Part shown: positions 37,003-52,129 of the stretch, piece by piece
How positions within the stretch are numbered: position 1 is the stretch's first letter
Layout of the letters: each line of letters begins with the position of its first letter
Source: Sedimentisphaerales bacterium
Lineage (GTDB): Bacteria; Planctomycetota; Phycisphaerae; Sedimentisphaerales; Anaerobacaceae
DNA length: 64,000 bases
Assembly: GCA_030611315.1 (NCBI GenBank)
Contig: JAUWPZ010000001.1
Coordinates: 8,640-72,639 of the forward strand
Direction: 5' to 3'
Program-made: the position numbers and the translations under genes
The notes under the pieces: generated by a model
The model's database searches: none
Seen by the model: only the letters and a program-made list of their open reading frames with translations
What the model was told of the DNA's origin: nothing

Positions 37003-38805
37003 TTACTTCTTCTCCCTGCCTGCCAGAAAATCGAACACATCATACAAAAGCCCTTGCGCATAAGGCCCCTCGAGCAGCCCGAACCAAACATACAGCACCC
37101 GCTGGCCGTTGCCGCTTTCTGAGTAGGCAATCCCATCACCAAGGTCACCGCCGCTGCCGTCGCGCAGCTTCAAAAGCGAAATGTACCCGCCGTCTTTCTC
37201 TCGCGGGACAAAAGGCCGCCACCGCAGGTCCCCCGTCCGTGGAAACGCAAACCGCTCCGGTAAGTGCCGCAGCATACGCCCCGGCTGAACAAACGTTAGC
37301 TCCGCGTCAGACGCCGGCCTTTCCCATCCTCTCCCGAAAGTCAGCCCGAACCTCTCGCCGGTGCGCACCGTCTTGCCGTCCTCGTCGTAATAAAAAGGCC
37401 ACGGCATCGAAGGCAAAACCGCCAGAGTCCCGCCTTCGGCCAAATAACGGCTCAGCGCCTCATCCACATCACCGATCTTCCTGACGGTCCGGCGATAACT
37501 CTCGCCCGCACAATACAAAACCATCCCGAAGCTGTCCGCCGTCAGCTTGCCGCCTGCCACGTCCTCCCAGCTCAAAATCTCTATATCCGCACCCAAATCC
37601 ACCAGCCACCAAAAAGCCATCGAATCCGCATCGGCCAGCACGCCAATCTTCACGCCGGAAAGCTTGCTCTTTAATCGGGCCTTTTCATCAGCCGATATAC
37701 CCCCGGAATCAACTACTCTGTGGATGCTTCGCTTTTTGGCCTTAAAACGCCCGGCAAATTCACCCGTAATCTCAAGGTATTTATCACCATACTCAACCGA
37801 CGGTTCAATCTCGCTGCCCTCGTGCCACTCGTTGAAGCTCGTTATCAGTATCCAGTGCGGGTCCGCCTTGATGGCCTCTTCCCACTGCACACGATAAAGC
37901 TCCCCGCCGTACCGCTTCACCGCGAGACCGGGTTTGCGGATTTTCGTGTCGTCGTAGCCGGGAATCACCGTTAAAGTACTTATCCTCCCGGCCTCATCCG
38001 CTAATTGCACCCAGGACCGATACGTGCCGCCAGCCCACTTGCGCAGCTCGACCGGTTTCACCCCGCGAAGCGACCCGGCCGTGTTATACGTGTGGACGCC
38101 GTCAAAAACCCGCGCACAGCCAAAGCTGAACTTATCGCCAATCGCCGCGATACCCGGGTCGTATCTTTCATTTATCAGCCTTATGGCCTCAAACCAGCCA
38201 GTCAGCCCGAGCTGCCCAAGGGCTCGGCCATACACAAACACCACACCCCTGCCGCCGACCTTAAGATAAGCAGCATGACTACTGTATTTGTTCAGGACCT
38301 TGACAATATCGTCCGCCGCCGCCTGGGGCGTTCGGGGCCTCGGCACGGCCTCGTAGTAAATGCACGCCTTCAGCCCATGACGCCGGCAGCGGTCGAGAAT
38401 CTTCTCCATCGCACGGTCAGAGTAACTATCATGCCCCCACCAACTGACGATAAACGTATCAATCCCGGCGTGCCGGGCCCATCGGCAGTGCTGGTCAATG
38501 AGCTTGCGGTCGTGTGAATCATAAGCCCCGAGAACTGGATAGTTGGTGCTCGCCGCGATATCTTTACCGGCGGCATCGATACGGCCCCAGTGCATCGTCC
38601 TGCCCGCACCCCCGGGCCCGTCAGCCGTGCCGTACCACGGATAATAGAACGTCATAATTCTTCGCGAAACCTCGCCGTCCTGCCGCCCACCGCGGCCACG
38701 CAAGACCTCGACTTCCATCCCTGCACTCCCATTCGCAGCCAACACAACGCCGGCAAATACGAATAATAGCAGCCCGAAGTAAGTGTTTCTGTGTGTTCCA
38801 GTCAT
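37003..38805 (-). CDS. Secreted glycoside-hydrolase-like protein (GH99-like N-terminal domain?)
   Basis: FYYPWYG...HWGRI...LGAYDSHD...AGIDTFIVSWWG resembles the GH99 family as I recall it. ATG 38805 is preceded by AGGAGA and followed by a signal peptide. Confidence 0.45.
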   Translation of the reverse strand: MTGTHRNTYFGLLLFVFAGVVLAANGSAGMEVEVLRGRGGRQDGEVSRRIMTFYYPWYGTADGPGGAGRTMHWGRIDAAGKDIAASTNYPVLGAYDSHDRKLIDQHCRWARHAGIDTFIVSWWGHDSYSDRAMEKILDRCRRHGLKACIYYEAVPRPRTPQAAADDIVKVLNKYSSHAAYLKVGGRGVVFVYGRALGQLGLTGWFEAIRLINERYDPGIAAIGDKFSFGCARVFDGVHTYNTAGSLRGVKPVELRKWAGGTYRSWVQLADEAGRISTLTVIPGYDDTKIRKPGLAVKRYGGELYRVQWEEAIKADPHWILITSFNEWHEGSEIEPSVEYGDKYLEITGEFAGRFKAKKRSIHRVVDSGGISADEKARLKSKLSGVKIGVLADADSMAFWWLVDLGADIEILSWEDVAGGKLTADSFGMVLYCAGESYRRTVRKIGDVDEALSRYLAEGGTLAVLPSMPWPFYYDEDGKTVRTGERFGLTFGRGWERPASDAELTFVQPGRMLRHLPERFAFPRTGDLRWRPFVPREKDGGYISLLKLRDGSGGDLGDGIAYSESGNGQRVLYVWFGLLEGPYAQGLLYDVFDFLAGREKK

Positions 38806-38962
38806 AGTTCTCCTCATGTTACGAAAGTAATGGCTCCTGCAAAATTGCATAACTTATTGTGATAGTGCCTGTCAGCATTCACCATTGAAGCGCCAAAAGG
38901 CTATTGTTCTGTCAAGGCCCAACTGATGGATTGTCATTCCTCAAATTATACTTGACAGAACA

Positions 38963-40015
38963 CTATTCATTCATCGAAAAACCAATTTTTTCTCTCAGCG
39001 CTCGACAGGCCGCTGCCGGGTCACCGACCCCGGTCGCCGCAGAACACACCGCTACCGCTTTAGCACCGGCCCCCAAAACCTCTTCGATATTGTCCGCCGT
39101 TATCCCGCCAATGGCAACATGGCCGATACCGGTACCGGCAAGCTCTTTCGTCGCCTCCCGGACATACCCCAGCCCGACGGGCTGGATAGTGGGCTTTGTC
39201 TCGGTAGCAAAAACCGGCCCTAAACTAACGTATGTAGGGCGCTGCTCGCAGGCGGCACGCAACTGTTCGAGCGAATGCGTGCTCCTGCCCACAATCAACG
39301 GAACCAACTGAAGCCCGCGGGCGCACTCGATAGATAAATCATTTTGACCAAGATGCACACCGTCCGCTCCGGCCCCGACCGCGATATCGACCCGGTCGTT
39401 GATTATGCTCAAGACCCCACAATCCCTGCAGAGCCTCACAAATTCGCCGGCAAGAGCGAATAACGTATCATCTGCAATATCTTTCGCCCGCAGTTGAATA
39501 CAATCAGCGTCGCCGGCTGCGCACTTGTAAGCCAACGAAATAACCTCTGCCGGTAAATTGCTGCTGATTATCACGTACAGCACGACCCGCCTGAATTTCT
39601 CGGCCGGCTCACTGAAGACAACAATGTCCTTTTCGAGCGTATAAGCATCGAATCGCAGCTTCTCGATTGCCTCGGCCACGGGTTTGTCCAGCATCTGCGC
39701 CATCTCTGCCAGCGCCCGAAGCGCCTCTGTCAGCCGTTTGCATCCGGCAATAAAGCAATCCCGCAGTTCGCCCCGCGTAAGTTGCTCACTGACAGTCTTT
39801 CCGACGCCAACGTCGCCAGGTACGTCCCTGCTTGAGATAAGCCGGCCGGTATCAAGCCTGTCAATAGCCGTACATAGCTCGTGCCGAAGCTGCCTGGCCC
39901 GCTCGGTCAATGCAGCCGAATTCAATGCGAATCTGCAATATTCCTCTACCATCCGAACCGCCTCCCGGGCACGGTTGAAATTCGCATCTATAATCCTGTA
40001 AACTGCACGTTCCAT
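38963..40015 (-). CDS. thiE: Thiamine-phosphate synthase with N-terminal extension domain
   Basis: The C-terminal half has GADGVHLGQNDL and ...GGI motifs. The N-terminal YRIIDANFNRAREAVRMVEE domain matches the long (cyanobacterial-type) ThiE form. Confidence 0.75.
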   Translation of the reverse strand: MERAVYRIIDANFNRAREAVRMVEEYCRFALNSAALTERARQLRHELCTAIDRLDTGRLISSRDVPGDVGVGKTVSEQLTRGELRDCFIAGCKRLTEALRALAEMAQMLDKPVAEAIEKLRFDAYTLEKDIVVFSEPAEKFRRVVLYVIISSNLPAEVISLAYKCAAGDADCIQLRAKDIADDTLFALAGEFVRLCRDCGVLSIINDRVDIAVGAGADGVHLGQNDLSIECARGLQLVPLIVGRSTHSLEQLRAACEQRPTYVSLGPVFATETKPTIQPVGLGYVREATKELAGTGIGHVAIGGITADNIEEVLGAGAKAVAVCSAATGVGDPAAACRALREKIGFSMNE

Positions 40016-40723
40016 AGCTGTGTTTATTATACAAGACAAGACGGCCGTTGAGTAGCCAAAATTCCCAATCCGGCCGATTCACTGCGTCATCCCCCGCAAA
40101 AGCTTGTCGCTTTACACTAAAACCCGCCATCCCTACGAAAGTCTGTCGTCCTCGCGAAAGCAGGGAATCCCAAACACTACTTGCATGCACCGGCCTCCCC
40201 CCGGCGCAAAGGAAAACGGAGTCGCCCCTCCTCCGGAACGACCCCGTGCGTATATTATTATCAAAACCAGCAACGCTGATTTTGGTTCCTTCAAAAAACC
40301 GGGCGGACATACCCTCCTCCATATTAGTTATGTTTAAGCCGTCCGCCTAATATTTCGAGTATTAAAGAACAAAACTTACTTTTACGCAAAAAATGTGCCA
40401 ACAACGAACAATAAATCCAAAGACCAACACCAGATATCACCTAAGCAATTACTACAAAAACAGTTACATCTGTGTTTTAAGCGGTCCTATAAGAAATAAT
40501 ATGTTCACTATTTTGACGCTGTGTTGCTTTCTTGCAACACCACAAGCGCCCAATTACTCTGTATTCACACAATATTTTGGCGCAAAGTGCGAAACAGCTT
40601 AGAAAATCACATAATGTTTACGAAAAACAACGTGGTTGTGAACTATGAACATTAAGGAATAGTTGGACGGCTGGAACGCAACGCTTGGTATGTCGAGTCA
40701 TAGAAAAACTACTCGCCAGACGT

Positions 40724-42730
40724 TCAATTCTTCCCTAAAGGCCGGTATTCCGCCCTCAGGAAGACACGGTTGGTCCACCGGCAAAACCACCGGCCGTACA
40801 GCATCTCCTCGCCGGGGCACTGCCGGTCAAGCCGAAAAACACTGTTCTTGCGCCATGCAGTGATCTCTTCGGCAATTGCCTCTGCCTGCTCTTCGGGTAG
40901 TTCAAGCCGGACCACCTCAAATGGGTCGGCGTCCAAGTCATAAGCGTACGCTATTTTTGTCGTGGGGTTGTAAAAGAGCTTGTGATTGCCCTCAACAAAG
41001 CCTGCAGGCCCCTCATGCATCCAGCCCGAGAAATAGACCTTGCGGGCCCGCGGAGGTTGCGCCAATATATCATGGCCGTCAAAATCGCCGTCTTTTATCT
41101 CGAAGCCCAGCAGTCCCAGAAGCGTCGGCGTCAAATCGACAGAACTGACAGCTTCAGCAACTTTGGCGCCAGGCTGAACTGAGGACCCGGCTCGCAAACA
41201 AAAAGGGATACGCAGCACCTCCTCGAACACTATCCTTTCGTGTCCGAGGAGCCCATGCTCGCCGAACGCCTCGCCGTGATCACCCACGACGCAAAAAACA
41301 GTCTTGTCCACAAGGCCCAATCTGTCAAGCTCCCCGTCCAGCGCTTTTAAGAATCCATCAGTGTAAGCAATGGACTGCTTATAGCGGTCAATCGGCTCGT
41401 CGGCAGGCTCGCCATACCACTCTGGAACCTCGTACGGGTCGTGAGTAACCGAGCAAAGGGCCGTCAAAAAAAATGGTTTGTCGTCCCGTTGTATCCACTC
41501 GATGATGTATTTTAGCATCCTGAACTCATCACAGGCCAGATAACCCAAAAAGCCGTTTGGGTCGGGCAAATCGTCTCTCGACCAGAACTCATCAAAGCCC
41601 AAATTGTGGACCAGCCCGGGCCGCGACTCAAAATTCCCTTTCGCTGATTGAAAAAACGCCGTGCGATAACCCAGTTCTTCTCGAAGGGCCGTTGCAAGAC
41701 TCGCATAAGGTTTGACTGCCGGAACCGCTTCAGCAAGGTCCTCGGATGCCGAAGGAAATTGTCCCGTCAAAAGCGCAAACAATGCTTTCGTGGTATGGGT
41801 CACCGAAGAACGGGCGTTTGTGAATTCAACTCCCTGCCCGGCCAGCTCCGCCAGAAACGGCGTCAGGTCATTCGCCTCTGGTCTTTCAAGGCCAACCGTG
41901 CTATCCAGGCCGGTCCCAGCCAGCGAAGTGTACCTGTACTGTACGCCCTCGAGCACAACTACCAGCACGTTTTGTCTTGTCGGTCGCGGCTTCAATGCGA
42001 GCCGCACCTGATCAAAGTAGGGGACCTGCCGCTTCGACTCCTCGAATCGGCGGCGAAAAAGACTTACAACCGCTTTATACTGGGCATTATACCGCATCCC
42101 CGTTGAAGCGATGTGCGGCGAGCCGCGATGTTCTGTCACGCCGCGAATTATAACGGCCAGGAAGATAACAGTAAGAGTAATAAGTATTTTCTTGGCAAAG
42201 CGCTGGTGGTTGTAATTTGGCAGCACTGGCCTTACTAAAACACAAAAGAAAAACGTAAGCGCTACGGCACTTGGCGCCAGCAGTGCCACGGTGGACTTCG
42301 GCGCCGCCGCAAGATTAGAACCAATTATGCCCAGTGAGTTAATAGGGTCGCGAAGTAAAGGTAAAAGGACAGTTGGTAAGACTTGTGTCCCGGTTCTTAT
42401 CAGCCAGCCTGCGTTTATAACCGACCACGTACACACAAGAGCTGCGAAAACAGTAACCGCCCGGACAATCCACCGGCGAGGCCGGCAAAAACAAATAGTC
42501 GCCAAGATTACCTCAATCCCTAACAATACAGATATATCAGAAAGAACCCAGTCAAAGTGTTGGTTCGCAAGACTGCAACGAAGAGAGTGGAAGAATTTAA
42601 CCACCAGAGTACAAAAGATAGCGCTGAACATAATAACAGTATAAGCGCGAGGAGCTAAAAGGTTATACAGCCGGTAAATAGACAAAACGTCTCTTGGCCC
42701 CTTTCTGAATTTTGCTTGCTTAATACCCAT
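40724..42730 (-). CDS. LTA-synthase/phosphoglycerol-transferase-like membrane sulfatase-fold protein
   Basis: About 5 N-terminal TM helices are followed by an alkaline-phosphatase/sulfatase fold (VVLEGVQ, VVGDHGEAFGEHG). Confidence 0.75.
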   Translation of the reverse strand: MGIKQAKFRKGPRDVLSIYRLYNLLAPRAYTVIMFSAIFCTLVVKFFHSLRCSLANQHFDWVLSDISVLLGIEVILATICFCRPRRWIVRAVTVFAALVCTWSVINAGWLIRTGTQVLPTVLLPLLRDPINSLGIIGSNLAAAPKSTVALLAPSAVALTFFFCVLVRPVLPNYNHQRFAKKILITLTVIFLAVIIRGVTEHRGSPHIASTGMRYNAQYKAVVSLFRRRFEESKRQVPYFDQVRLALKPRPTRQNVLVVVLEGVQYRYTSLAGTGLDSTVGLERPEANDLTPFLAELAGQGVEFTNARSSVTHTTKALFALLTGQFPSASEDLAEAVPAVKPYASLATALREELGYRTAFFQSAKGNFESRPGLVHNLGFDEFWSRDDLPDPNGFLGYLACDEFRMLKYIIEWIQRDDKPFFLTALCSVTHDPYEVPEWYGEPADEPIDRYKQSIAYTDGFLKALDGELDRLGLVDKTVFCVVGDHGEAFGEHGLLGHERIVFEEVLRIPFCLRAGSSVQPGAKVAEAVSSVDLTPTLLGLLGFEIKDGDFDGHDILAQPPRARKVYFSGWMHEGPAGFVEGNHKLFYNPTTKIAYAYDLDADPFEVVRLELPEEQAEAIAEEITAWRKNSVFRLDRQCPGEEMLYGRWFCRWTNRVFLRAEYRPLGKN

Positions 42731-43183
42731 GGCGTGTCAAAATACTACAATCATAGCCAATTAGCAAGCAGCTTTAGTAAAATGCGGTGCACTAAATTAC
42801 AGCACAGAAAGGGGCATGGTGTGGTGGTTGTAATAATATAGAATATAGTAAAGAAATATTAGTATTGGTAGTAGTATAGCTTGTTATTTTGTGATATCCT
42901 GAGCAAAGCAGCGAGCTAAGCCCTTTTCTGGTAGTGGGTTAGAGAATAGGGATGTTAGAAGTTTTCTGTGCGCAAGCTGTGAGGTTGGCGGTGAAATTAT
43001 CCGGGGAAAGTAACAACCAGTTGGCCCGCTGAATTTTGCCTGTTAACTTCTATGTAACTTAACACATATATCACAAGATTTTCTGGCGCGTGTGACTACG
43101 TATCAGGAACAATAGCCGCCTTTGATATTGGAAATCCGCAGGCTCTGGAGGTTAAATTTCCTTGGCTCTTTAAAAAAATAAAC

Positions 43184-43213
43184 TTGACAGCTTAGTTAAG
43201 CAGGCAACAATAT
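43184..43213 (+). promoter_or_regulatory. Putative marR promoter with embedded inverted repeat (candidate operator)
   Basis: TTGACA lies at 43184-43189, with a CAATAT-like -10 about 18 nt downstream. The inverted repeat GCTTA-GT-TAAGC (43190-43201) sits in the spacer. Confidence 0.45.
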
Positions 43214-43251
43214 ACATACGAACAATATAAAAATGAAACAAGGAGACCAGG

Positions 43252-43755
43252 ATGACGCTTGAAGATGAATTAGGCCTGCAAAAACCGGTGGCCTTGCTGG
43301 GCCACAAGGCTCTGTTGAGCATGTGCTATACAGCTTCACGTTTAAGAAAAAAGGCCGGCGAATTCTTCCGCCCTTTCACTCTTACAGACGTCCAGTTTAA
43401 CCTTATGATGCTCCTGAAACACCAGAGCGGTAATAAGAAGGGGTTAAGTCAGGTACAGCTAAGCAACATGATGCTTGTCAACCGTGCGAATATAACCTCG
43501 CTCGTGGATCGGATGGAGACAGCGGGCCTTGTCGCCCGGACGCCTGCGCCGTCTGATAGAAGGACGAATATAATAAAGCTGACCACCCGGGGCAAAAAGC
43601 TGCTTGAGAGGGTCGAGCCGATGTACGCCAGGGAGGTAGAAGGAATAATGGCCGCCCTAAAAGAGCCTGAACAGAAAAAACTGATAGCAATGCTAGAAAA
43701 AATAAGGTCAAACATCGGTGATTCAAATGGGAAAAAGAAGGCTCCGAAAACGTAG
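43252..43755 (+). CDS. MarR-family transcriptional regulator
   Basis: It has a winged-HTH segment (LSQVQLSNMMLVNRANITSLVDRMETAGLVARTPAPSDRRTNIIKLT). An AAGGAGA RBS lies upstream. Confidence 0.88.
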   Translation: MTLEDELGLQKPVALLGHKALLSMCYTASRLRKKAGEFFRPFTLTDVQFNLMMLLKHQSGNKKGLSQVQLSNMMLVNRANITSLVDRMETAGLVARTPAPSDRRTNIIKLTTRGKKLLERVEPMYAREVEGIMAALKEPEQKKLIAMLEKIRSNIGDSNGKKKAPKT

Positions 43756-43793
43756 GAAAGGAAGATTCTCTTGAGGCAAAGCAAAGACTATAA

Positions 43794-45308
43794 ATGAGCA
43801 CAGAGCAATGGACATGTAGGTTGACCGGCGCTGCCAGCGGATTATTGCTGGCTATTCCATATTTTTGGCCGCTTGCGGCACCGTTACAATTAGTAGCCCT
43901 GCTTCCGATTTTCTACCTAGGTTCTCGCCGGGCGACCACCCGCCGACAGATACTTATAGCCGGTGCTTATATGGGGATTTTATATGTGATGCCCCAAGCT
44001 ATCTTGCTTCGGATGCCTGCCTGGATTACGGTGGCCCTGTTGTTGGAGCTAACTATTTTAATGACTGTTTTTGCCTGCTGTTGCCACAGGATTCTTGCAG
44101 GCTCAACAGTGGCAGGCGCGCTGGCGGTGGGGGCCTCGCTGGTTGTGCTTGACTGGGTGAATATTACTGCGGTTCCTATATGGAGCATGGCGCAGTCGAT
44201 TGTTCGCCCGTGGTCCCGATATCCGAGCTTGATTTCATTCGTTTGTGTGACCGGCCTTACCGGTATTGCGTTTCTGTTGGGCACATTACAGGGACTGTTC
44301 ATAAACATCACTGGTTGCCCGAAACGGCGATATCGCTCGCTTATTGCGATTGTTTTCATTGTTTTGGTTTTCGGAGGGGCCAATGTGATTGTTCGATACC
44401 CCAAGTCGGCGGGTGAGCTTAAGGTTGCGGCGATAGGTTGGACAGATGGCGGCCCTGGGGATAGTGCCGACACTTCTTCTCCGGCGGGTTTCGATTCTTT
44501 ATATGCAGGACCAATAGCAAAAGCGGCTGGGCAGGGGGCACGGCTTATTGTTTCGCCGGAACTGGGCTTCTATTGCGGGGCCGGAACTCGTGAAAAATGG
44601 CTCGAGCGGTTTCGGGATGTTGCGAGTCACCATAATGTTTTTCTTGCTATCGGATTTTTCAGCGGCGCGCGACAGGAAAACCGCCTTTTGTTCATGGGTC
44701 CCGACGGTCGGGTGATGAGCGAATATACTAAGACGCACCTTACTCCATTTGAAGACTTCCGCAAGGGCAACGGCGAGCTGGCAATCATTGATGTTGATGG
44801 AGTGCAAATTGGCGCTATGATTTGCCAGGATGACAATTTTACGGACATATCGCGCCGCTATGGGAACAAGGGCGTTTCTTTGGTGGCGGTTCCGACGCTG
44901 GATTGGTCAACTGTGAAAAGCGCCCACTTACAAAGTAGTATTCACCGCGCTATCGAGTCGCGCTATGCGGTTGTCCGCGCTGGAATTAATGGGATAAGCG
45001 CAATTATTTCGCCGACGGGCGAGGTTATTGATAAAATGGATCATTTAGAGAAGGGCCCCGGAATTATCATTGCTGATGTTCCTTTGTATTCAGGCAGAAC
45101 GCTCTTTAGCATGGCCGGCCATTGGCCGGTCTTGCCGAGCGTTGTATTCCTTCTGGCTTATTTAGCCAAAGGCTTTTATACAACAAGACTGCATGGCAAA
45201 CTCGACACAGGGTGTTCTGAGGGAGATATTGAACAGGGCAACGAACCAGCCCTGGAGCAGAATAGCGAAGTAAGGCCGGCTGGGCCGGAAGGATTGTGTC
45301 TCGTTTAG
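43794..45308 (+). CDS. Apolipoprotein N-acyltransferase-like membrane CN-hydrolase
   Basis: About 6-7 N-terminal TM helices are followed by a nitrilase-superfamily domain. The E/K/C triad candidates are VSPELGF, KTHLTPFED and AMICQDD. There is a C-terminal TM helix. Confidence 0.7.
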   Translation: MSTEQWTCRLTGAASGLLLAIPYFWPLAAPLQLVALLPIFYLGSRRATTRRQILIAGAYMGILYVMPQAILLRMPAWITVALLLELTILMTVFACCCHRILAGSTVAGALAVGASLVVLDWVNITAVPIWSMAQSIVRPWSRYPSLISFVCVTGLTGIAFLLGTLQGLFINITGCPKRRYRSLIAIVFIVLVFGGANVIVRYPKSAGELKVAAIGWTDGGPGDSADTSSPAGFDSLYAGPIAKAAGQGARLIVSPELGFYCGAGTREKWLERFRDVASHHNVFLAIGFFSGARQENRLLFMGPDGRVMSEYTKTHLTPFEDFRKGNGELAIIDVDGVQIGAMICQDDNFTDISRRYGNKGVSLVAVPTLDWSTVKSAHLQSSIHRAIESRYAVVRAGINGISAIISPTGEVIDKMDHLEKGPGIIIADVPLYSGRTLFSMAGHWPVLPSVVFLLAYLAKGFYTTRLHGKLDTGCSEGDIEQGNEPALEQNSEVRPAGPEGLCLV

Positions 45309-45347
45309 AATGGTCGATTCTAATTATGAGGAATTTGATAGGCTGCG

Positions 45348-48300
45348 ATGAAAAAAGCAAAGATTGATAAAATAGACTTGTTTGTTGGTTTTGATGTCGG
45401 GAGTAGTTTCATCCATTATGCGGTTCTTGATGGGGATAGAAAAGTCGTATTTTCACCTGCGCCGATAATGCACTTTGCTAATCCCATCGGAGCAGTAAAA
45501 GAAGCATGGCGGGACATCACGAAAAAGCTCGGCAAGGCCAACATAAGGAATACCGCCTTTACAGGAAGCGGCGCCGAATCTTTCCCCAGGGTTCTGAAGG
45601 GCGTAACTTACGTTTTTGACAGCGTGGCTATTCCCAAAGGGGTGGAGGCAACACAGCCGGCGGCAAAGTACATATTCCACATAGGGGCAAAAGACTCGTA
45701 CTTCTTCAATCTAAAAGAAGTCAACGGCAGGAAGATTATCCAGGAATGGAAAACGGGCACCAAGTGCGGAGGCGGCTCCGGAACGCTGATAGAAAAGCAG
45801 TGCAGAAGATTGTTTGAGGGCCAGGTCCCCAATCCAAAACTAAAAGACACCGCAAAGGCAAAAAACGAGGCCGAAAAAGAAAAAATCAGAGTTAATAACC
45901 GCAAAAAACTACAGGGAAGACTTGAAGAAATGTACCGCAGGGCCGAGGAAGAAGCGGAGAAATCAAAAGAGCCGAGCGAGTTCCTCGCCAGATGCGGCGT
46001 TGTTATTCAATCCGATTTGATACACAAGCAAAACGAGGGCGCGACAAGGGAAGATAATTTAGCCGGGCTTTTTAAGACGGTCGCAAGAAATTTCAAGATT
46101 GACGTCCTCGGCGCAAGGCAGATCAACAACACCGGCGATGGTGCTGTCGCAACCGGTGGTGTTATGGCCAATGCTCTTATAAGGAAAAATCTGGAGGAAT
46201 TTCTCGGAATTTCCATAACCAGGCCCGAGCATTACCACAACATAGCGGCCGTGGGCGCAGCGGCGAAGGGTATAGAGGAGAACAACAGCGTTGTCTTCGA
46301 TGCCGAACAGCTCGACAAGGTCGCCCGGTACAGCCGGGAGAAAAGGCAGTACGGCCCAGCTCTTTCACAGTGCCTCGAAAATGTAAATGAAAAAAGCCAA
46401 TCCCTGGAAGAAGAAATACAGGAGAAAACGGAAGTAGTGCTCGGGATAGACGGAGGAAGCACTACGACAAAAGGGGCTTTGGTTGAGTTAAAAACAGGCA
46501 GGCTCCTCGATAAACTTTATATTAAAACCCACGGGAATCCGGAGCAGTCTCTAAAAAACGTCTTAAAGTACCTGAGCCGGCACAAAGACAGGGTTATTGT
46601 CAGGGGCGTTGGTGCTACCGGTTCTGCGAGGAAGCTGTACGAGAAGATTTTAGTCGGCAAGAAGAAGGCCGAGCGGTTGGCACAACAATCGATTGAAATC
46701 ACGGACAAAATAACCGATGAAATTACCTGCCACGCTCTTGGCGTTAAGTATTGCAATCCGGAGGTTGACACCATTTTCGAGGTGGGCGGCCAGGACATGA
46801 AGTTCACCAGTTTCGCCAAAGACGGAACGGTCAAAGAGGCGAAAATGAACTATAGCTGCCAGGCCGGCTCGGGACAGACCCTCGATAATATGGCCGACGT
46901 GATAAATCTGAACGTGGAGAATACCCTGCAGGCCGCCGCGCTTCGGGCGGACAGGGTCCCGATAATCGATTCGACCTGCGGCGTTTTTATGGAGATGGAT
47001 GAGAACAGGCTCATCGCCGAGGGCTTCAGCAAAGATGAAATCGCCGCCGCGATAATTCGAGGGACGGCCGCGAGTTATTACTTTAAGTTTGTTGGCGGCG
47101 CTCAGCATGTCGGAGAAAAATGCTCAGCCCAGGGCGGCCCGCCTCTGGGAAAAGCCTTTCTCGCCGCACTTGCCCAGGTAACGGAAAAACAAATAGAAGC
47201 CTATCCTCACAGGGAGATGTTCGGCGCATGGGGCCAGGCCCTGGACATTATTGAAAACATAAAACGCCTGGACGAGAAGGGCAAAAAGCATGAATCCGCG
47301 TTCAGAGGGTGGGGCCTGGTAGATATGCCTTTTGAAAAGCAGAAGATTTCCTGCCGGGAGCTGTTCAAGGAAAAGACCTGCGGCGTCAGAGATTGCCAGC
47401 TCGAAGTGTTTTCCATCGAGGATGATAAAATAATCACAGGGGGCTTCTGTCCCAGGGGAAATTCGGAGTCGGTCAAAAAACCGAAAACCAATTATGTTGA
47501 GAAATACCATAAAATATTCGAAAGGCACTTTAAGCTTCAGGGGGCCTTGCTGAAAGAAATATCCTCTACGAAGATAGACAGAAAATCGGTAAAAACCGTC
47601 GGCGTTAAAAGGAGCACCGCAACGCTTGGCGAGAAAGGAATCTGGAGCGCCGCCCTTTTGAGAAGGCTCGGCTTTTATCCTGTGATATCGCCGAGAAGTG
47701 ATAAGGAAATCGCGAAAATCGGAGTCGATAATTCGAGAACGGAGTTTTGTATAGCGAGGAAGCTCGCAACCGGACACGCCTCGGTATTGAACGCCGAGCC
47801 GAATATAGAGTACTTGTTTAATCCGAGTTTTATCGAGCAGAGAAAAGACGACCCCCCGGACCTGAAATACTGTATCTACACGGAGTCCGAAGGCTATATC
47901 CTCAACGATGTCCTATCCCTCGATAAGAGCAAGCAGATAAATCCAATCCTGCACTTCGGAGATGTGCCGCTTCTTGTTCGTGAATTAAAAAAGGAGTTTC
48001 GTCGATTGGGATTCGGGCTCACGAATAGACAGATAACAAATGCAATTCGGTGCGCAGAGAAGGCCGAGAGCGAATTCAAAGATGAGCTTTATAGAGAGGG
48101 CGATAAATTCCTGGACAAAATCGAGAAAGAAGACATAAAGGCCTACGTCGGCATTGGAAGGGATTACGTCCTGCTCGACCCCGAGGCAAGCTCGAACTCG
48201 GGAGCTATGTTCTCTCAGATAAGGGGATTGGATTACATACCGCAGCTCTTTTTGGAGCATAAATTCGCTGATATAGACCTTGGTGATGTCGTGGAGAACG

Positions 48301-49937
48301 AGTTTTGGGTGCAGAGCGTGAAGATTCTTCAGGCCAATTTGTTTGTGGCGCAGCATCCTAATTTGTTTGCTATAAGAATGATGAACTTCGCCTGCGGCCC
48401 GGACAGCCTGAAAATTTACCAGGAAGAAAAAATCCAGCAGGCGGCGGGCAAGCCCGTCCTTGTTTTGTTGACGGATGCGCAAACCAATAACGCCCCCTTT
48501 GTAACGAGGACCGAGGCCCACGAGAGGGTCGTAAGCCAGAGCAGGCGCAGAGACGTGAGAATCGAAAGAATAAAAAAATATTCGAACGACGGCAACGAAA
48601 AGAGAATATGGCTCATCCCGTATATGGGCAACAGCAGCTTCGTCGGGGCCGCGGGAATAAGGCACTTCGGCGTAAAGAGCCAGGTCTTGCCGACCAACAC
48701 GCAGAGAGGCTACGAGATAGCAAGGAAGTACATCTACACGGAGGTTTGCCATCCCCTTAAGGGAGTTGTCGGCGATGCACTTGCGTTCCTCGAAAGCCAG
48801 ATCGAGGCGAAAGGCAGGCAGTATGTTGAAGATAACTATCTTGTTATGCTCCCGACAACGAGCGGCCCATGCAGGTTCGGAAAGTATGTGGAGGTGCTTA
48901 GAGATTTTATGAACCGCGAAGGGCTGGAAAAAGTTCCGGTCGTGGGCCCATCTTCGGAAACGGATTATTTCGACATACCTTTTTCAGACGATTCCGGCTC
49001 ATCTCCGGGAATGAAAATGCAGAAAATACTGTTCAAGGGAATGAAGGCGTCAGACTTGCTCGAGGATATTACCTTGAGATTTCGTCCGTACGCTGAAGAT
49101 AAGAGCAAGGTGGATGAATTAAAAAAGCAGAGAATGGGCAGGCTGGAAAAAGTTGTGGAAAAGGGCGCCAAAATGGACGACATCCTTGAATGGGGAAGAA
49201 AAACGGTCTCCCTGTTCAAAGCCGCCAACCCGCAAAATCACGAGAGATTCCCTCTTGTTCTTTACATAGGCGAGATTTATATGAGGCAGCACGACCCTTA
49301 TACTAATTTTGTAATTGAGCGGCTGGAAGATAAGAATCTGGAATTGGTGAGGGACCCGGTAACTGATTGGCTGGACTATGTCAACCAGATGAACCAGAGA
49401 AACTCGAAAAGGGACATAGGATTAAGGCTTAGAGAATTCAACTTGAGCCGGTTGATGAAGGTGCTGAGAAAATACGCCAAGTCTTTCATCAAGGGGAAAT
49501 ATATGTCAACCGTTGAGCGGAAAATAGCCGAGCCGTTTCACGAAGTGCTCTCCGGCAGACACGCCCTTCCGAAGCCGATAGAAATAATCGAAACTCTGGA
49601 AAAGCAGCACGAAGGTCACGGCAACATCGAAGGCGAATCACCGCTGAGCACCGGAATAGCTTATCATTTTATGCACGATTTGACCAGGCCCGAAAACGGC
49701 GCCTATATATCGGGAATATTCCACGTGGGCCCTTTCACCTGCATGCAGGAAGGAGTCGCAACGGCAAAAATAGAGGCGATGGCCAAGGAGCTGAGAAAGA
49801 AAAAACCGGACCTGGTATTCCCAATCATACACGCCTTTTTCGGCGATTCGCCCAGCGCAAATCTCGATTCGGAAATCGCGGTTTTCACAGAGCAGTGTTA
49901 CCAGAAACAAGAAATATTGAAAGAAAAGTACGGATGA
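45348..49937 (+). CDS. Fusion of two BcrAD/BadFG activase ATPase modules with a DUF2229 / 2-hydroxyacyl-CoA-dehydratase-like half (PlsA/PlsR- or Ger-like)
   Basis: Module 1 spans aa ~1-310 (GFDVGSS, KCGGGSGTLIEKQ, ARCGVVIQSDL). Module 2 spans aa ~363-640 (GIDGGSTTTKG, SCQAGSGQTLDNM, STCGVFMEMDE). The C-terminal ~880 aa carries NFACGPDS, SGPCRFGKY and GPFTCMQE. Confidence 0.7.
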   Translation: MKKAKIDKIDLFVGFDVGSSFIHYAVLDGDRKVVFSPAPIMHFANPIGAVKEAWRDITKKLGKANIRNTAFTGSGAESFPRVLKGVTYVFDSVAIPKGVEATQPAAKYIFHIGAKDSYFFNLKEVNGRKIIQEWKTGTKCGGGSGTLIEKQCRRLFEGQVPNPKLKDTAKAKNEAEKEKIRVNNRKKLQGRLEEMYRRAEEEAEKSKEPSEFLARCGVVIQSDLIHKQNEGATREDNLAGLFKTVARNFKIDVLGARQINNTGDGAVATGGVMANALIRKNLEEFLGISITRPEHYHNIAAVGAAAKGIEENNSVVFDAEQLDKVARYSREKRQYGPALSQCLENVNEKSQSLEEEIQEKTEVVLGIDGGSTTTKGALVELKTGRLLDKLYIKTHGNPEQSLKNVLKYLSRHKDRVIVRGVGATGSARKLYEKILVGKKKAERLAQQSIEITDKITDEITCHALGVKYCNPEVDTIFEVGGQDMKFTSFAKDGTVKEAKMNYSCQAGSGQTLDNMADVINLNVENTLQAAALRADRVPIIDSTCGVFMEMDENRLIAEGFSKDEIAAAIIRGTAASYYFKFVGGAQHVGEKCSAQGGPPLGKAFLAALAQVTEKQIEAYPHREMFGAWGQALDIIENIKRLDEKGKKHESAFRGWGLVDMPFEKQKISCRELFKEKTCGVRDCQLEVFSIEDDKIITGGFCPRGNSESVKKPKTNYVEKYHKIFERHFKLQGALLKEISSTKIDRKSVKTVGVKRSTATLGEKGIWSAALLRRLGFYPVISPRSDKEIAKIGVDNSRTEFCIARKLATGHASVLNAEPNIEYLFNPSFIEQRKDDPPDLKYCIYTESEGYILNDVLSLDKSKQINPILHFGDVPLLVRELKKEFRRLGFGLTNRQITNAIRCAEKAESEFKDELYREGDKFLDKIEKEDIKAYVGIGRDYVLLDPEASSNSGAMFSQIRGLDYIPQLFLEHKFADIDLGDVVENEFWVQSVKILQANLFVAQHPNLFAIRMMNFACGPDSLKIYQEEKIQQAAGKPVLVLLTDAQTNNAPFVTRTEAHERVVSQSRRRDVRIERIKKYSNDGNEKRIWLIPYMGNSSFVGAAGIRHFGVKSQVLPTNTQRGYEIARKYIYTEVCHPLKGVVGDALAFLESQIEAKGRQYVEDNYLVMLPTTSGPCRFGKYVEVLRDFMNREGLEKVPVVGPSSETDYFDIPFSDDSGSSPGMKMQKILFKGMKASDLLEDITLRFRPYAEDKSKVDELKKQRMGRLEKVVEKGAKMDDILEWGRKTVSLFKAANPQNHERFPLVLYIGEIYMRQHDPYTNFVIERLEDKNLELVRDPVTDWLDYVNQMNQRNSKRDIGLRLREFNLSRLMKVLRKYAKSFIKGKYMSTVERKIAEPFHEVLSGRHALPKPIEIIETLEKQHEGHGNIEGESPLSTGIAYHFMHDLTRPENGAYISGIFHVGPFTCMQEGVATAKIEAMAKELRKKKPDLVFPIIHAFFGDSPSANLDSEIAVFTEQCYQKQEILKEKYG

Positions 49938-50206
49938 GGGCATCACGCTCTCAGGGCTTGGTGTTTATCGTGGCTGTGAAATTGTTGGGTTTCAATCGGT
50001 TGGCTTATATAAGGCTTTGTGTTGTAAGTAGTTACAAGCGGCAAGTCACCGCGATTTTTTGTGGATAAGCTGTTACATTATCGGTGAATTTGCCCGGCAG
50101 GACAGACTAAGGTGCTCTCGTCTGTCCGGCGTGGCCAAACAGGTTCACTGTTGCGAACAAACGCCGTCGAGTTTTGCCTCAGAGCCGAATCGTTTCGCTC
50201 CGCACG

Positions 50207-50689
50207 TCAGTTTATTTTCTTTAGCAGCTCTTTTCTGGCCTGGACTCGAAGCTTGGCGTTTTCGTAGCGTCTCTTTTCCTGCTCTGTTTCGGCCAGTATC
50301 GCGGGGACCGGTGTCGGCTTCTTATTCTCGTCCAGCGCCACAAACGTCAAATGCGCAGTCGTGGCTATGGCCTTGCGGCCGCTGTATGGCTCTTCCCTGA
50401 TGACCCGGACGCCGACTTCCATTGACGATCGGCTGACGTAATTTACGCTGGCCTTGAGGGCGACGTGGTCGCCGATTCGGATGGGCTCCTTGAAGGCGAG
50501 CGAGTCGATACCGGCGGTAACGACTTCCCTGCCGCAGTGTCTCTGTGCCGCCATTGCCGCCACCATATCAATCCACGCCATAATCACGCCTCCGAACGCC
50601 GTGCCGTGAGGATTGGCCTGATGGGGCATAAGTAAATATCTTGTTTCTACCGAGCTTTGGCTGGGGCTTTTGCCCTTTTCATCTTTCAT
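50207..50689 (-). CDS. Acyl-CoA thioesterase (hotdog fold, YciA-like)
   Basis: It has the MPHQANPHGTAFGGVIMAWIDMVAAMAA motif. Confidence 0.8.
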   Translation of the reverse strand: MKDEKGKSPSQSSVETRYLLMPHQANPHGTAFGGVIMAWIDMVAAMAAQRHCGREVVTAGIDSLAFKEPIRIGDHVALKASVNYVSRSSMEVGVRVIREEPYSGRKAIATTAHLTFVALDENKKPTPVPAILAETEQEKRRYENAKLRVQARKELLKKIN

Positions 50690-50713
50690 TGTTCAGATAC
50701 CCGTTAGTTCTGT

Positions 50714-51301
50714 CTAAAATTCCACTTTCGGCACTTCCGTCTTTGCCTGCTCGCTGGCCTCGAAATACTCCACCGGCTCCACGCCCGCCTTTTTGCAGAA
50801 GAATGAGCCGAAGTACTGCCGATGGTACGAATTCAACTGCTTGGCCGCCTCGTTATACCTCGTCCGGGCGACCGCTATCCGGTTTTCTGTCCCTTCCAGG
50901 GCGACCTGAAGGTCTCGAAAATTATCACTGGCCTTGAGCTGGGGATAGTTCTCCTGAAGCATCAGGAGCCGTGAGAGAAATCCTCCGAGCTCGTTCGATG
51001 CCGATATCTTCTCTGCCCTCGAGCCGGCCTGGAAATACTTCTCCCTGGATTTTGCGATGTTCTCGAACAGGTCTTTTTCGTGTGTCGCGTACCCCTTGAC
51101 CGTGTTCACAAGGTTCGGTATCAGCTCGAGCCGACGCTGCAGGGCGGCGTCGATGTCCGCCCAGCCCTTTTCCGCAGCTTGTTCGAGGTTGACGGCCTTG
51201 TTGTAGCCGCCGATATACCACAGGAATACCCCAAGACCTACTAACGCCAGAACTACCAATATCCCGACTAATACGACCCATCCCTTTGCGTTGTTTCTCA
51301 T
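50714..51301 (-). CDS. lemA: LemA family protein
   Basis: An N-terminal TM helix is followed by YNKAVNLEQ...RRLELIPNLVNTVKGYA..HEK. Confidence 0.85.
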   Translation of the reverse strand: MRNNAKGWVVLVGILVVLALVGLGVFLWYIGGYNKAVNLEQAAEKGWADIDAALQRRLELIPNLVNTVKGYATHEKDLFENIAKSREKYFQAGSRAEKISASNELGGFLSRLLMLQENYPQLKASDNFRDLQVALEGTENRIAVARTRYNEAAKQLNSYHRQYFGSFFCKKAGVEPVEYFEASEQAKTEVPKVEF

Positions 51302-51331
51302 TTTATTACGCCTCCATAATTTGTTTTTGCT

Positions 51332-52129
51332 TTACCAGCCTCCGCTTGCACCACCGCCTCCGAATCCGCCGCCCATACCACCGCCGAATCCCCCGAACCC
51401 GCCGCCGAAGCTGCCTCCTCCGAATGAGCCGCTCCTGCCGTAGCCGCCGTGCCCACCGAATCCTCCGAACATAAACGGCAGGAAAAACAGCCACCCCCCT
51501 CCTCGGCCCCTGCCGCTTAGTATCAAAAGGAGAAATATCAACGGAATTATAGCGCCGCCGCAGCACGGAAGTCCTCTTCTTCCGTATCTCGCGGTAGGTA
51601 CGGGTTTTAATTTTGGCATGCCGGTCAGGCTGACACCCAAATGGCTGGCTATTTTTTGAACAACGGTCAAATTGGCCTGGTGGATTCCCCGGCTGAAATC
51701 TGATTTTTTGAGGAACGGGACCAAAACCTCTCTGCCCACTCGGCCGCAGTACTGGTCTGTCACGAATCCCTCTAATCCGTACCCGGTCTCGAAACGGTAC
51801 CTTTTCTCTTTCACCGCCAGAGTGAAGAGCATTCCATTGTCTTTGCCTTTCTGGCCCAGCTTCCATTTCTCAGCTAGTTCGATTGAAAACTGCTCAATCG
51901 CGAGTCCACCGGTTGTTTGGACGGTCAGAATGATATATTGCACGCCGGTCTTTTGCTCCAGCTCCTGAAGTATGCCGTTGAGCGACTTTTCATCGGAGCC
52001 GTTTATCACGTTGGCGTAATCCTCGACGTAGTGACGGGGCATCGGCAGGTCGGACTGCGCGAAGGCAGGCCGGGACACGCCCAATATTACCGATAGAGCC
52101 CCCATCAAAATGACCGGGAGTAGTCGCAT
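51332..52129 (-). CDS. TPM-domain protein (YgcG-like) with Gly-rich C-terminus
   Basis: It has a signal peptide, a TPM-like core, a TM helix, and a GGGSFGGGFGGFGGG tail. It is adjacent to lemA. Confidence 0.75.
   Translation of the reverse strand: MRLLPVILMGALSVILGVSRPAFAQSDLPMPRHYVEDYANVINGSDEKSLNGILQELEQKTGVQYIILTVQTTGGLAIEQFSIELAEKWKLGQKGKDNGMLFTLAVKEKRYRFETGYGLEGFVTDQYCGRVGREVLVPFLKKSDFSRGIHQANLTVVQKIASHLGVSLTGMPKLKPVPTARYGRRGLPCCGGAIIPLIFLLLILSGRGRGGGWLFFLPFMFGGFGGHGGYGRSGSFGGGSFGGGFGGFGGGMGGGFGGGGASGGW

Follow-up and report, generated by a model that had tools for sequence, protein, structure and literature searches.

Reductases of the PlsA/Ger family and apolipoprotein N-acyltransferases (Lnt) both act on the sn-1 acyl ester of glycerophospholipids (PMC11416262, PMC13159169). 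Ger and PlsA have been described as sharing the BBD core, in which DUF2229 comes after two activase domains and which is conserved in all ether-lipid producers (PMC13159169), and single-gene plasmalogen synthases have an Act1-Act2-Red1-Red2 layout (PMC12838417). The genera Listeria and Collinsella are reported to make plasmalogens (PMC9702350, PMC12291448) and Ger homologues have already been reported in metagenome-assembled genomes (MAGs) of Phycisphaerae (PMC13159169, PMC11868695); producers of alkyl ethers and of alkenyl ethers are inseparable by sequence (PMC11868695). Lnt takes the sn-1 acyl chain of phosphatidylethanolamine (PE), producing lyso-PE that is recycled by LplT-Aas, and fused LplT-Aas forms are known yet uncharacterised (PMC11416262). 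Here we analyse a locus from a Sedimentisphaerales bacterium (GenBank assembly GCA_030611315.1, contig JAUWPZ010000001.1) in which the genes for a MarR-family regulator, an Lnt-like acyltransferase and a giant protein of the PlsA/Ger family follow one another. The whole 64-kb stretch that was analysed is referred to as the window, and all coordinates are window positions.

The window giant resembles PlsA-PlsR of Clostridium perfringens and the single-gene forms of Enterococcus, Listeria and Bifidobacterium in having two activase domains followed by putative reductase/dehydratase-type domains, which in the single-gene forms lie on one polypeptide (PMC12838417). An adjoining small transcription factor is a further likeness: the pls gene of Enterococcus faecalis has a TetR gene upstream (PMC9702350), and a TetR gene was seen immediately downstream of the Collinsella homologue at its locus. 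The window differs from these systems in that the regulator is MarR rather than TetR, the regulator gene is separated from the enzyme gene by an Lnt-family gene, the giant has no HGD-D match and a second giant paralogue exists in the same bacterial order. Ger of Thermotoga maritima and Desulfatibacillum alkenivorans, compared here by its described architecture, is alike in its BBD core and in the anaerobic lifestyle of its hosts, whereas the small H/D domains that follow BBD in Ger were not detected in the window giant. The regulator itself is reminiscent of autoregulated MarR lipid regulators of the FabT type, being a winged-helix MarR encoded first in the operon that it likely controls, with short repeated elements over the -35/-10/start region, but its operator sequence and gene set are different.

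We favour, with moderate confidence, the interpretation that the region is a MarR-autoregulated three-gene operon and one lineage-specific layout of a wider MarR lipid-remodelling regulon in anaerobic Phycisphaerae. An earlier, model-made reading of this DNA (the first-pass annotation) had proposed a regulated module for an unusual lipid. Its operon-like anatomy is upheld below, and MarR and a promoter-operator are conserved, whereas a new pathway dedicated to Lnt plus reductase is not established.

Results

The marR promoter carries a conserved putative operator

The three genes lie on the same strand, separated by 38 nt between marR and the Lnt-like gene (43756-43793) and by 39 nt between the Lnt-like gene and the giant (45309-45347), and a scan of the 8.2-kb region detected no terminator-like hairpin in either short gap. 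With one strand, short gaps and no internal terminator or promoter, marR, the Lnt-like gene and the giant look like a real operon by anatomy and would be co-transcribed. The open reading frame (ORF) list agreed exactly with the ORF coordinates, the 38-39 nt gaps, the divergent LtaS-like gene and the convergent thioesterase gene of the first-pass annotation, and the AT-rich spacer of 520 bp that it described was also confirmed (Table 1). Horizontal transfer was considered as the origin of the operon and rejected, there being no compositional sign of it (gene GC 49-52% versus 52.6% for the window).

Within the spacer between the divergent genes (42731-43251), the marR promoter-operator is the sole strongly conserved block among orthologous loci. 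The TTGACA site at 43184-43189 is the best promoter-like match in the 8.2 kb (10/12). Because the number of promoter-like sites found in this region was not above that of shuffled sequence (10 versus 7.7 expected), the significance of the promoter rests on conservation and not on the scan. A motif of ~46 nt, TTGACA-N2-3-TAGTT...ATAATATA.ATAT.AAC(A/T)AT, is common to 36 distinct loci upstream of marR, and its ATAATATA.ATAT.AAC(A/T)AT portion spans the -10 and start region. The window operator carries AACAATATA as a direct repeat (43206-43214 and 43221-43229), and in some loci the downstream part of the motif is a perfect palindrome (ATAGTTTATATATAAACTAT in L010). A weight matrix was made from the 36 distinct orthologous sites, with a background 99th percentile of 8.7 bits in random 400-nt windows; the window site scores 44 bits against it, and the 64-kb window holds no other site above 14 bits. 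The TAGTT and AAC(A/T)AT elements are likely the MarR operator, and the conserved motif overlaps marR's own promoter, consistent with autoregulation through this putative site.

The first-pass annotation had pointed to an inverted repeat, GCTTA-GT-TAAGC, in the promoter spacer. This repeat is present directly after TTGACA (43190-43201) and encloses the TTAGTT core, but its five arm pairs are all complementary (5/5) solely in the window, and 2-3/5 is commonest across the 36 distinct orthologous promoters. We rejected the palindrome as the conserved operator, since the TTAGTT core alone is kept and the arm symmetry is not. The broader reading that MarR and its promoter-operator are tied to lipid genes was supported, both being conserved (the motif in 36 distinct loci) and linked to such genes.

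Operator-like sites that did not enter the matrix occur between marR and the Lnt-like gene (L009, L026, L059, L163) and ahead of lipase genes (L012, L013, L039, L042). They also precede giants that have no adjacent marR. Six giants of the window's kind (type A) have a site 149-161 nt upstream (12.9-32.6 bits), and such sites lie upstream of type B giants, the paralogue described below, in L174 (30 bits) and L176/L177 (28 bits). The two arrangements meet in MAG GCA_964510545.1, where marR and a 41-bit site lead an Lnt-lipase-LplT/Aas-DUF2339 cluster (L017) and, on another contig (L177), the 28-bit site lies 186 nt before a type B giant. A separate case is L014:224-709, where an operator-like site (25.5 bits) is followed by a 147-aa ORF (266-709) directly upstream of the Lnt-like gene; this ORF gave no Pfam match and no similarity to MarR, and could encode either a regulator that has diverged very far or some small protein unconnected with it.

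One MarR family precedes both Lnt-like clusters and giants

The winged-helix domain of MarR (PF01047 and PF12802) covers residues 44-104. No equivalog match to any named MarR was found in NCBIfam, where all scores were far below the cut-offs, FabT giving a weak match. Genes for orthologues of 50-87% identity precede Lnt-like clusters as well as giants of both paralogous types, and a neighbour-joining tree groups the MarRs linked to giants into a single clade that lies within those linked to Lnt-like genes. The two giant paralogues are 26% identical, as against 66-71% for their adjacent MarRs. The giants therefore split long before the MarRs beside them, and on these identities MarR was not inherited in place next to the giants; with or without the Lnt-like gene, it has moved between members of the gene set. 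Nor is it dedicated to the pair of Lnt-like gene and giant, as had been supposed, since the same family leads Lnt-lipase-LplT/Aas clusters and giant-only operons.

The acyltransferase belongs to a divergent branch of the Lnt fold

Against the NCBIfam model TIGR00546 (lnt) the Lnt-like protein scores 88.6 bits, and its orthologue in L163 85.7 bits, under a cut-off of 132.9. An AlphaFold (AF2) model computed from 25 family members has a predicted local distance difference test (pLDDT) score of 86.6 and a predicted template-modelling (pTM) score of 0.85. In a Foldseek search of the Protein Data Bank (PDB) its top 24 matches were all full-length Lnt of E. coli or P. aeruginosa (E about 1e-16; TM 0.64-0.72 over 505-542 columns at 17-20% identity), whereas soluble nitrilases matched only the catalytic domain. 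Hydrophobic segments lie within residues 17-200, in agreement with the polytopic membrane domain that in the Lnt fold comes ahead of the CN-hydrolase domain, which a C-terminal helix follows. Alignment of the family profile with E. coli Lnt by hhalign (97.6% probability) matches E256 to the catalytic E267, K313 to K335 and C344 to C387, and all three residues of the window protein are invariant among the 25 family members. Next to the catalytic cysteine, C-Y-E of E. coli becomes a family-invariant C344-[QH]-D346-D347-N348, with Q and a gap placed opposite Y388 and E389. These two residues are essential in E. coli Lnt according to mutagenesis work. The protein thus has the full-length fold and the E-K-C triad of Lnt, and lacks the equivalog score and the Y388/E389 residues. 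Fold match, triad and sub-threshold score together indicate that the modelled protein is an Lnt-fold enzyme with an intact triad, from a divergent branch below the curated equivalog threshold.

The window protein and E. coli Lnt agree in overall fold (TM about 0.7 across some 515 columns) and share the triad; identity is 18-22%, the window protein is under the NCBIfam cut-off and has C-[QH]-D-D-N. The genomic setting also differs, in that ybeX adjoins E. coli lnt (the ybeZYX-lnt type of context), whereas the Lnt-like gene sits behind a MarR operator beside lipases or the giant reductase. The family is large, with members in Phycisphaerae/Sedimentisphaerales MAGs and more distant ones in Myxococcota. 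With the family hidden Markov model (HMM), no second Lnt-family ORF was found in the 64-kb window or in the loci compared, a sample too small to be decisive.

Most Lnt-like genes lack a giant, and many adjoin other lipid genes

Gene order around the Lnt-like gene was surveyed in 80 loci, one genome per species, of which 73 have room downstream. The Lnt-like gene is followed by a giant in 4/73 under a strict definition and in 6/73 by inspection (L001, L004, L006, L008, L064, L072). With the window, L165 and L162, the pair of Lnt-like gene and type A giant was seen in nine loci, over which the identity of the Lnt-like protein falls from 94% to 49%, and marR is upstream in the seven whose contigs extend far enough. 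The giant-linked Lnt-like genes are monophyletic in a neighbour-joining tree; among the nearest relatives, three (94%, 74% and 60% identical) occur with a giant and four (53-58%) without.

In 34/69 Lnt-anchored loci a MarR orthologue (50-73% identical) is encoded no more than 4 kb upstream in the same orientation. Which genes intervene between MarR and the Lnt-like gene, or follow them, varies, but they have a lipid theme in common: they encode GDSL lipases (main cluster in 16 loci), alpha/beta hydrolases and a PF00151-like lipase. Further neighbours are MFS_1-PlsC acyltransferase-AMP-binding fusions, DUF2339 membrane proteins and, in a few loci, a radical SAM protein, and at least one lipase, hydrolase or LplT-Aas-like neighbour is present in 24/59 Planctomycetota-type loci. 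The fusions, which resemble LplT plus Aas and so recall the lyso-PE recycling cycle in clustering with the Lnt-like gene, are single genes in L002, L013, L014, L017, L059, L167:10852-14253 and L168:580-3846, where they adjoin the Lnt-like gene, often with a DUF2339 protein and a lipase. Genes for phosphatidylserine decarboxylase (psd) and CDP-alcohol phosphatidyltransferase (pss) stand divergently upstream in 5-6 loci; they were seen upstream of marR in L002, L007, L017, L018, L059 and L167:5623-7260, sharing the intergenic region with the MarR promoter.

Some of these loci have peculiarities of their own. The Lnt-like gene is split into two frames in L072:1297-2618 and L063:9938-11426, as is the giant in L072:2653-7147, through either pseudogene formation or assembly error. 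Many MAGs labelled 'uncultured Pirellulales' (L001, L002, L007, L013, L017 and others) have loci that are collinear with those of MAGs labelled Sedimentisphaerales or Phycisphaerae and are close relatives of them, and the Pirellulales label is probably wrong.

The giant has its own stable neighbours and a second paralogue

The giant has BcrAD_BadFG domains at residues 13-305 and 365-632 and DUF2229 at 752-958, that is, a BBD core. From end to end it can be aligned collinearly to the type B paralogue and, at 23% identity, to the single-gene homologues of Listeria, Collinsella and Haliovirga, the Listeria alignment reaching about residue 1488, and nine cysteines, including C1016, C1134, C1175 and C1465, are invariant across types A and B. 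Near the Listeria PlsA-type homologue a soluble CN-hydrolase family gene lies three genes downstream (L170:9705-10074); two alpha/beta hydrolases are downstream of that of Haliovirga, and further spans at such loci (Collinsella, Haliovirga) are L171:7433-8122 and L172:7887-10335.

A second survey was anchored on type A giants and covered 80 metagenome loci whose giants are 71-79% identical to the one in the window. Upstream, an LtaS-like orthologue is divergently placed in 30/58 loci, and MarR without an Lnt-like gene lies directly before the giant in 12/69. Downstream, the convergent thioesterase is present in 24/43 and LemA in 21/43 of the loci with enough sequence. The Lnt-like gene was found in 0/69 loci with upstream room. 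The LtaS-like gene and the thioesterase-LemA pair are thus the neighbours that accompany the type A giant most constantly and, set against their frequencies, the Lnt-like gene is an insertion limited to a single clade.

The type B giant (L163:9664-14043, about 1460 aa) is 26% identical to the window giant and gives faint HGD-D hits; it occurs widely across the same bacterial order, with 70-77% identity among more than 100 proteins. It is closer to the Listeria and Collinsella homologues (27-29% identity, 483-554 bits) than type A is (23%, 234-244 bits). L163/L164 keep the succession of MarR, Lnt-like gene (its product 60% identical to that of the window) and giant, but with a type B giant and beside dnaN-dciA-gyrB instead of an LtaS-like gene. 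In L173 MarR (66% identical to the window's) directly accompanies the giant; in L174 and L176/L177 the operator alone is present, and in L175 and L178 neither marR nor operator, so that type B loci show the range of states also seen at type A loci. Five of the six distinct type B loci examined (5/6) lie next to dnaN-dciA-gyrB, near the replication origin. The synteny claimed for the three genes is therefore correct in part: the trio is kept in one clade, down to 49% Lnt-like identity, and recurs with a type B giant, but a general co-occurrence of Lnt-like gene and giant was not borne out by the neighbourhood surveys (0/69 and 4-6/73 loci).

Neighbouring genes and features of the region

The divergent LtaS-like protein has a Sulfatase match in Pfam and NCBIfam, weaker LtaS and EptA matches, and hydrophobic segments within residues 26-200; among solved structures it most resembles VP1736 (E=8e-24) and LtaS (E=5e-13). 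The LemA-family gene is probably a conserved neighbour and not part of the unit. A riboswitch or small RNA was rejected as an explanation of the 521-bp spacer, an Rfam search of 40000-51500 having returned no match at E<=0.1. Beyond the LtaS-like gene, at 37003-40039 on the minus strand, are a ThiD2/TMP-TENI thiamine gene and a GH99-family glycosidase gene; their order is the same in L165 and they appear unrelated to the lipid genes. Between giant and thioesterase, L165 (a relative 94-97% identical to the window) has ~1.2 kb of additional sequence, including a 154-aa ORF that belongs to no known family (L165:16151-17634), where the window has only 270 nt (49938-50206).

Table 1. Coordinates of the operon-like unit and of the features on either side of it
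Feature	Position	Strand	Description
LtaS-like gene	40724..42730	-	Divergent neighbour; N-terminal membrane anchor and sulfatase-fold domain; PF00884 E=6e-42
Divergent intergenic spacer	42731..43251		521 bp; AT-rich, 39.5% GC vs 52.6% for the window
Sigma-70-like promoter and putative MarR operator	43184..43229	+	-35 TTGACA 43184-43189; TTAGTT core 43192-43197
MarR-family regulator	43252..43755	+	167 aa; PF01047 E=2e-11, PF12802 E~1e-11
Divergent Lnt-family membrane acyltransferase	43794..45308	+	504 aa; CN_hydrolase PF00795 E=8e-24
Type A giant of the PlsA/Ger family	45348..49937	+	1529 aa; two BcrAD_BadFG, DUF2229, long C-terminal part
YciA-like hotdog acyl-CoA thioesterase	50207..50689	-	4HBT E=1e-20; convergent with the giant
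LemA-family gene	50714..51301	-	PF04011 E=2e-52; follows the thioesterase

Discussion

According to the interpretation that we favour, the operon would belong to an anaerobic, Sedimentisphaerales-like member of Phycisphaerae. Transcription would begin at the sigma-70-type promoter (43184), which carries TAGTT and AAC(A/T)AT in its spacer and start region, and MarR would bind these conserved elements, probably repressing its own promoter until a lipid-derived ligand frees it. The Lnt-fold acyltransferase would move a phospholipid acyl chain to an amine acceptor and leave a lysophospholipid, as suggested by the chemistry of its family and by its LplT-Aas, lipase and PE-synthesis neighbours; its active site would be outside the cytoplasmic membrane if the Lnt topology holds. 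The cytoplasmic, ATP-driven giant would reduce the sn-1 ester of a glycerolipid to an alkyl or alkenyl ether, a role taken from family membership only. Elsewhere the same MarR and operator may control the Lnt-like gene together with GDSL and alpha/beta lipases, LplT-Aas-like fusions and DUF2339 proteins, or either giant paralogue alone. The shared sn-1 ester target offers a rationale for common control, not a proof of coupling. Co-transcription, repression by MarR, ligand release and both enzyme activities are what we infer, the activities with lower confidence.

Several observations weigh against such a regulated lipid operon. The Lnt-like protein falls below the NCBIfam lnt cut-off and has C-[QH]-D-D-N in place of C-Y-E, and its gene was absent from all 69 type A loci with upstream room and adjoined a giant in just 4-6 of the 73 Lnt-anchored loci. 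Residues 960-1529 of the giant gave no Pfam match, HGD-D included, and a fold search with residues 652-1529 (878 aa) returned as its weak top match BzdNO, a benzoyl-CoA reductase module (E=3e-3, TM 0.22/0.39), while identity to the Listeria and Collinsella homologues is only 23%. Many giants have neither marR nor the motif, as in L175, in L178 and in the majority of the 58 type A loci without marR, so the regulon is not universal. The neighbour-joining trees were made from short or saturated proteins, MAG bins may be mixed, and both co-transcription and MarR binding are deduced from sequence.

These points have to be set against what other explanations would require. The trio might reflect chance adjacency, a housekeeping apolipoprotein N-acyltransferase and the MarR it travels with having landed by the giant in one lineage without functional coupling. 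The rarity of the pairing (0/69 and 4-6/73 loci) is as this would predict, as are the single Lnt-like locus per species genome (apart from one MAG with two Lnt-giant loci, which is maybe a mixed bin), the full Lnt fold with its E-K-C triad and the LplT-Aas-like neighbours, which suit ordinary Lnt chemistry (PMC11416262). We nevertheless regard it as unlikely, because the trio persists down to 49% Lnt-like identity, its gene order is found again elsewhere on the chromosome with a giant paralogue of only 26% identity and the operator also stands before giants in loci, and in one genome, where marR is elsewhere; a housekeeping gene behind a MarR-type operator would also be unusual. At the opposite extreme is the dedicated two-enzyme pathway of the first-pass annotation, in which the Lnt-like protein and the giant act in sequence on one substrate, under a private MarR, to yield an unusual ether-linked and/or N-acylated lipid or lipoprotein anchor. 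The operon anatomy, the recurrence of MarR, Lnt-like gene and giant with two giant paralogues, the altered active-site motif C-[QH]-D-D-N that is invariant in the Lnt-like family and the sn-1 acyl ester targeted by both families (PMC11416262, PMC13159169) all point this way, but each of the two families is mostly found in the absence of the other, the MarR is also found at lipase/LplT-Aas clusters and giant-only operons, and the product cannot be inferred from sequence, which makes a dedicated pathway very unlikely.

A further question, compatible with any of these explanations, is whether the type A giant reduces a glycerolipid ester at all. It could instead have diverged within the 2-hydroxyacyl-CoA dehydratase / benzoyl-CoA reductase superfamily and act on another substrate, for example an acyl-CoA, which would leave the Lnt-like gene as the sole basis for reading the operon in terms of lipids. 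Its distance from the Listeria/Collinsella homologues (23%) and from type B (26%), type B being nearer to them (27-29%), argues in this direction, together with the missing HGD-D hit in residues 960-1529, the weak C-terminal structural matches, the conserved convergent acyl-CoA thioesterase and the presence of two paralogues in one order, which suggests functional divergence. Full-length collinearity with single-gene PlsA-type homologues, the BBD core reported as conserved in all ether-lipid producers (PMC13159169), the nine cysteines invariant across types A and B and the membrane-lipid character of the conserved neighbours, the LtaS-like and Lnt-like enzymes, argue for the opposite, and on balance another substrate seems improbable. 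An extension of the favoured reading can also be drawn, although we think it decidedly unlikely in this complete form. One MarR regulon of anaerobic Phycisphaerae would coordinate all sn-1 acyl ester chemistry of membrane glycerolipids, with two ether-forming reductase paralogues at the cytoplasmic face, an Lnt-family transacylase (C-[QH]-D-D-N) of specialised function working with lipases, and LplT-Aas fusions that repair the lysolipids so formed. The Lnt-like gene of the window would then be co-transcribed because ether formation depletes the acyl donors of Lnt, or because the Lnt-like protein N-acylates an acceptor derived from ether lipid to give an undescribed lipid or lipoprotein anchor.

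The kinds of component seen here are all known, namely MarR autoregulation and the Lnt, PlsA/Ger and LtaS families. In the searchable literature we found nothing on a MarR with a conserved operator that links Ger/PlsA-family, Lnt-family, lipase and LplT-Aas genes, and nothing on two deeply diverged giant paralogues in one bacterial order; searches for Lnt with Planctomycetes and for Sedimentisphaerales with ether lipid gave no match, and that for MarR with plasmalogen synthase none that was relevant. The paper that defined Ger notes that the gene is often carried without the lipids and asks for work on the triggering conditions (PMC13159169). A conserved MarR and operator ahead of two Ger/PlsA-family paralogues is a concrete entry to the triggers of ether-lipid synthesis, and the same regulator at Lnt-family, lipase and LplT-Aas clusters would tie ether-lipid formation to lysophospholipid turnover. 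Such a regulon would inform the poorly known envelope biology of the phylum Planctomycetota, and may bear on the possible sources of sedimentary ether-lipid biomarkers (PMC11868695).

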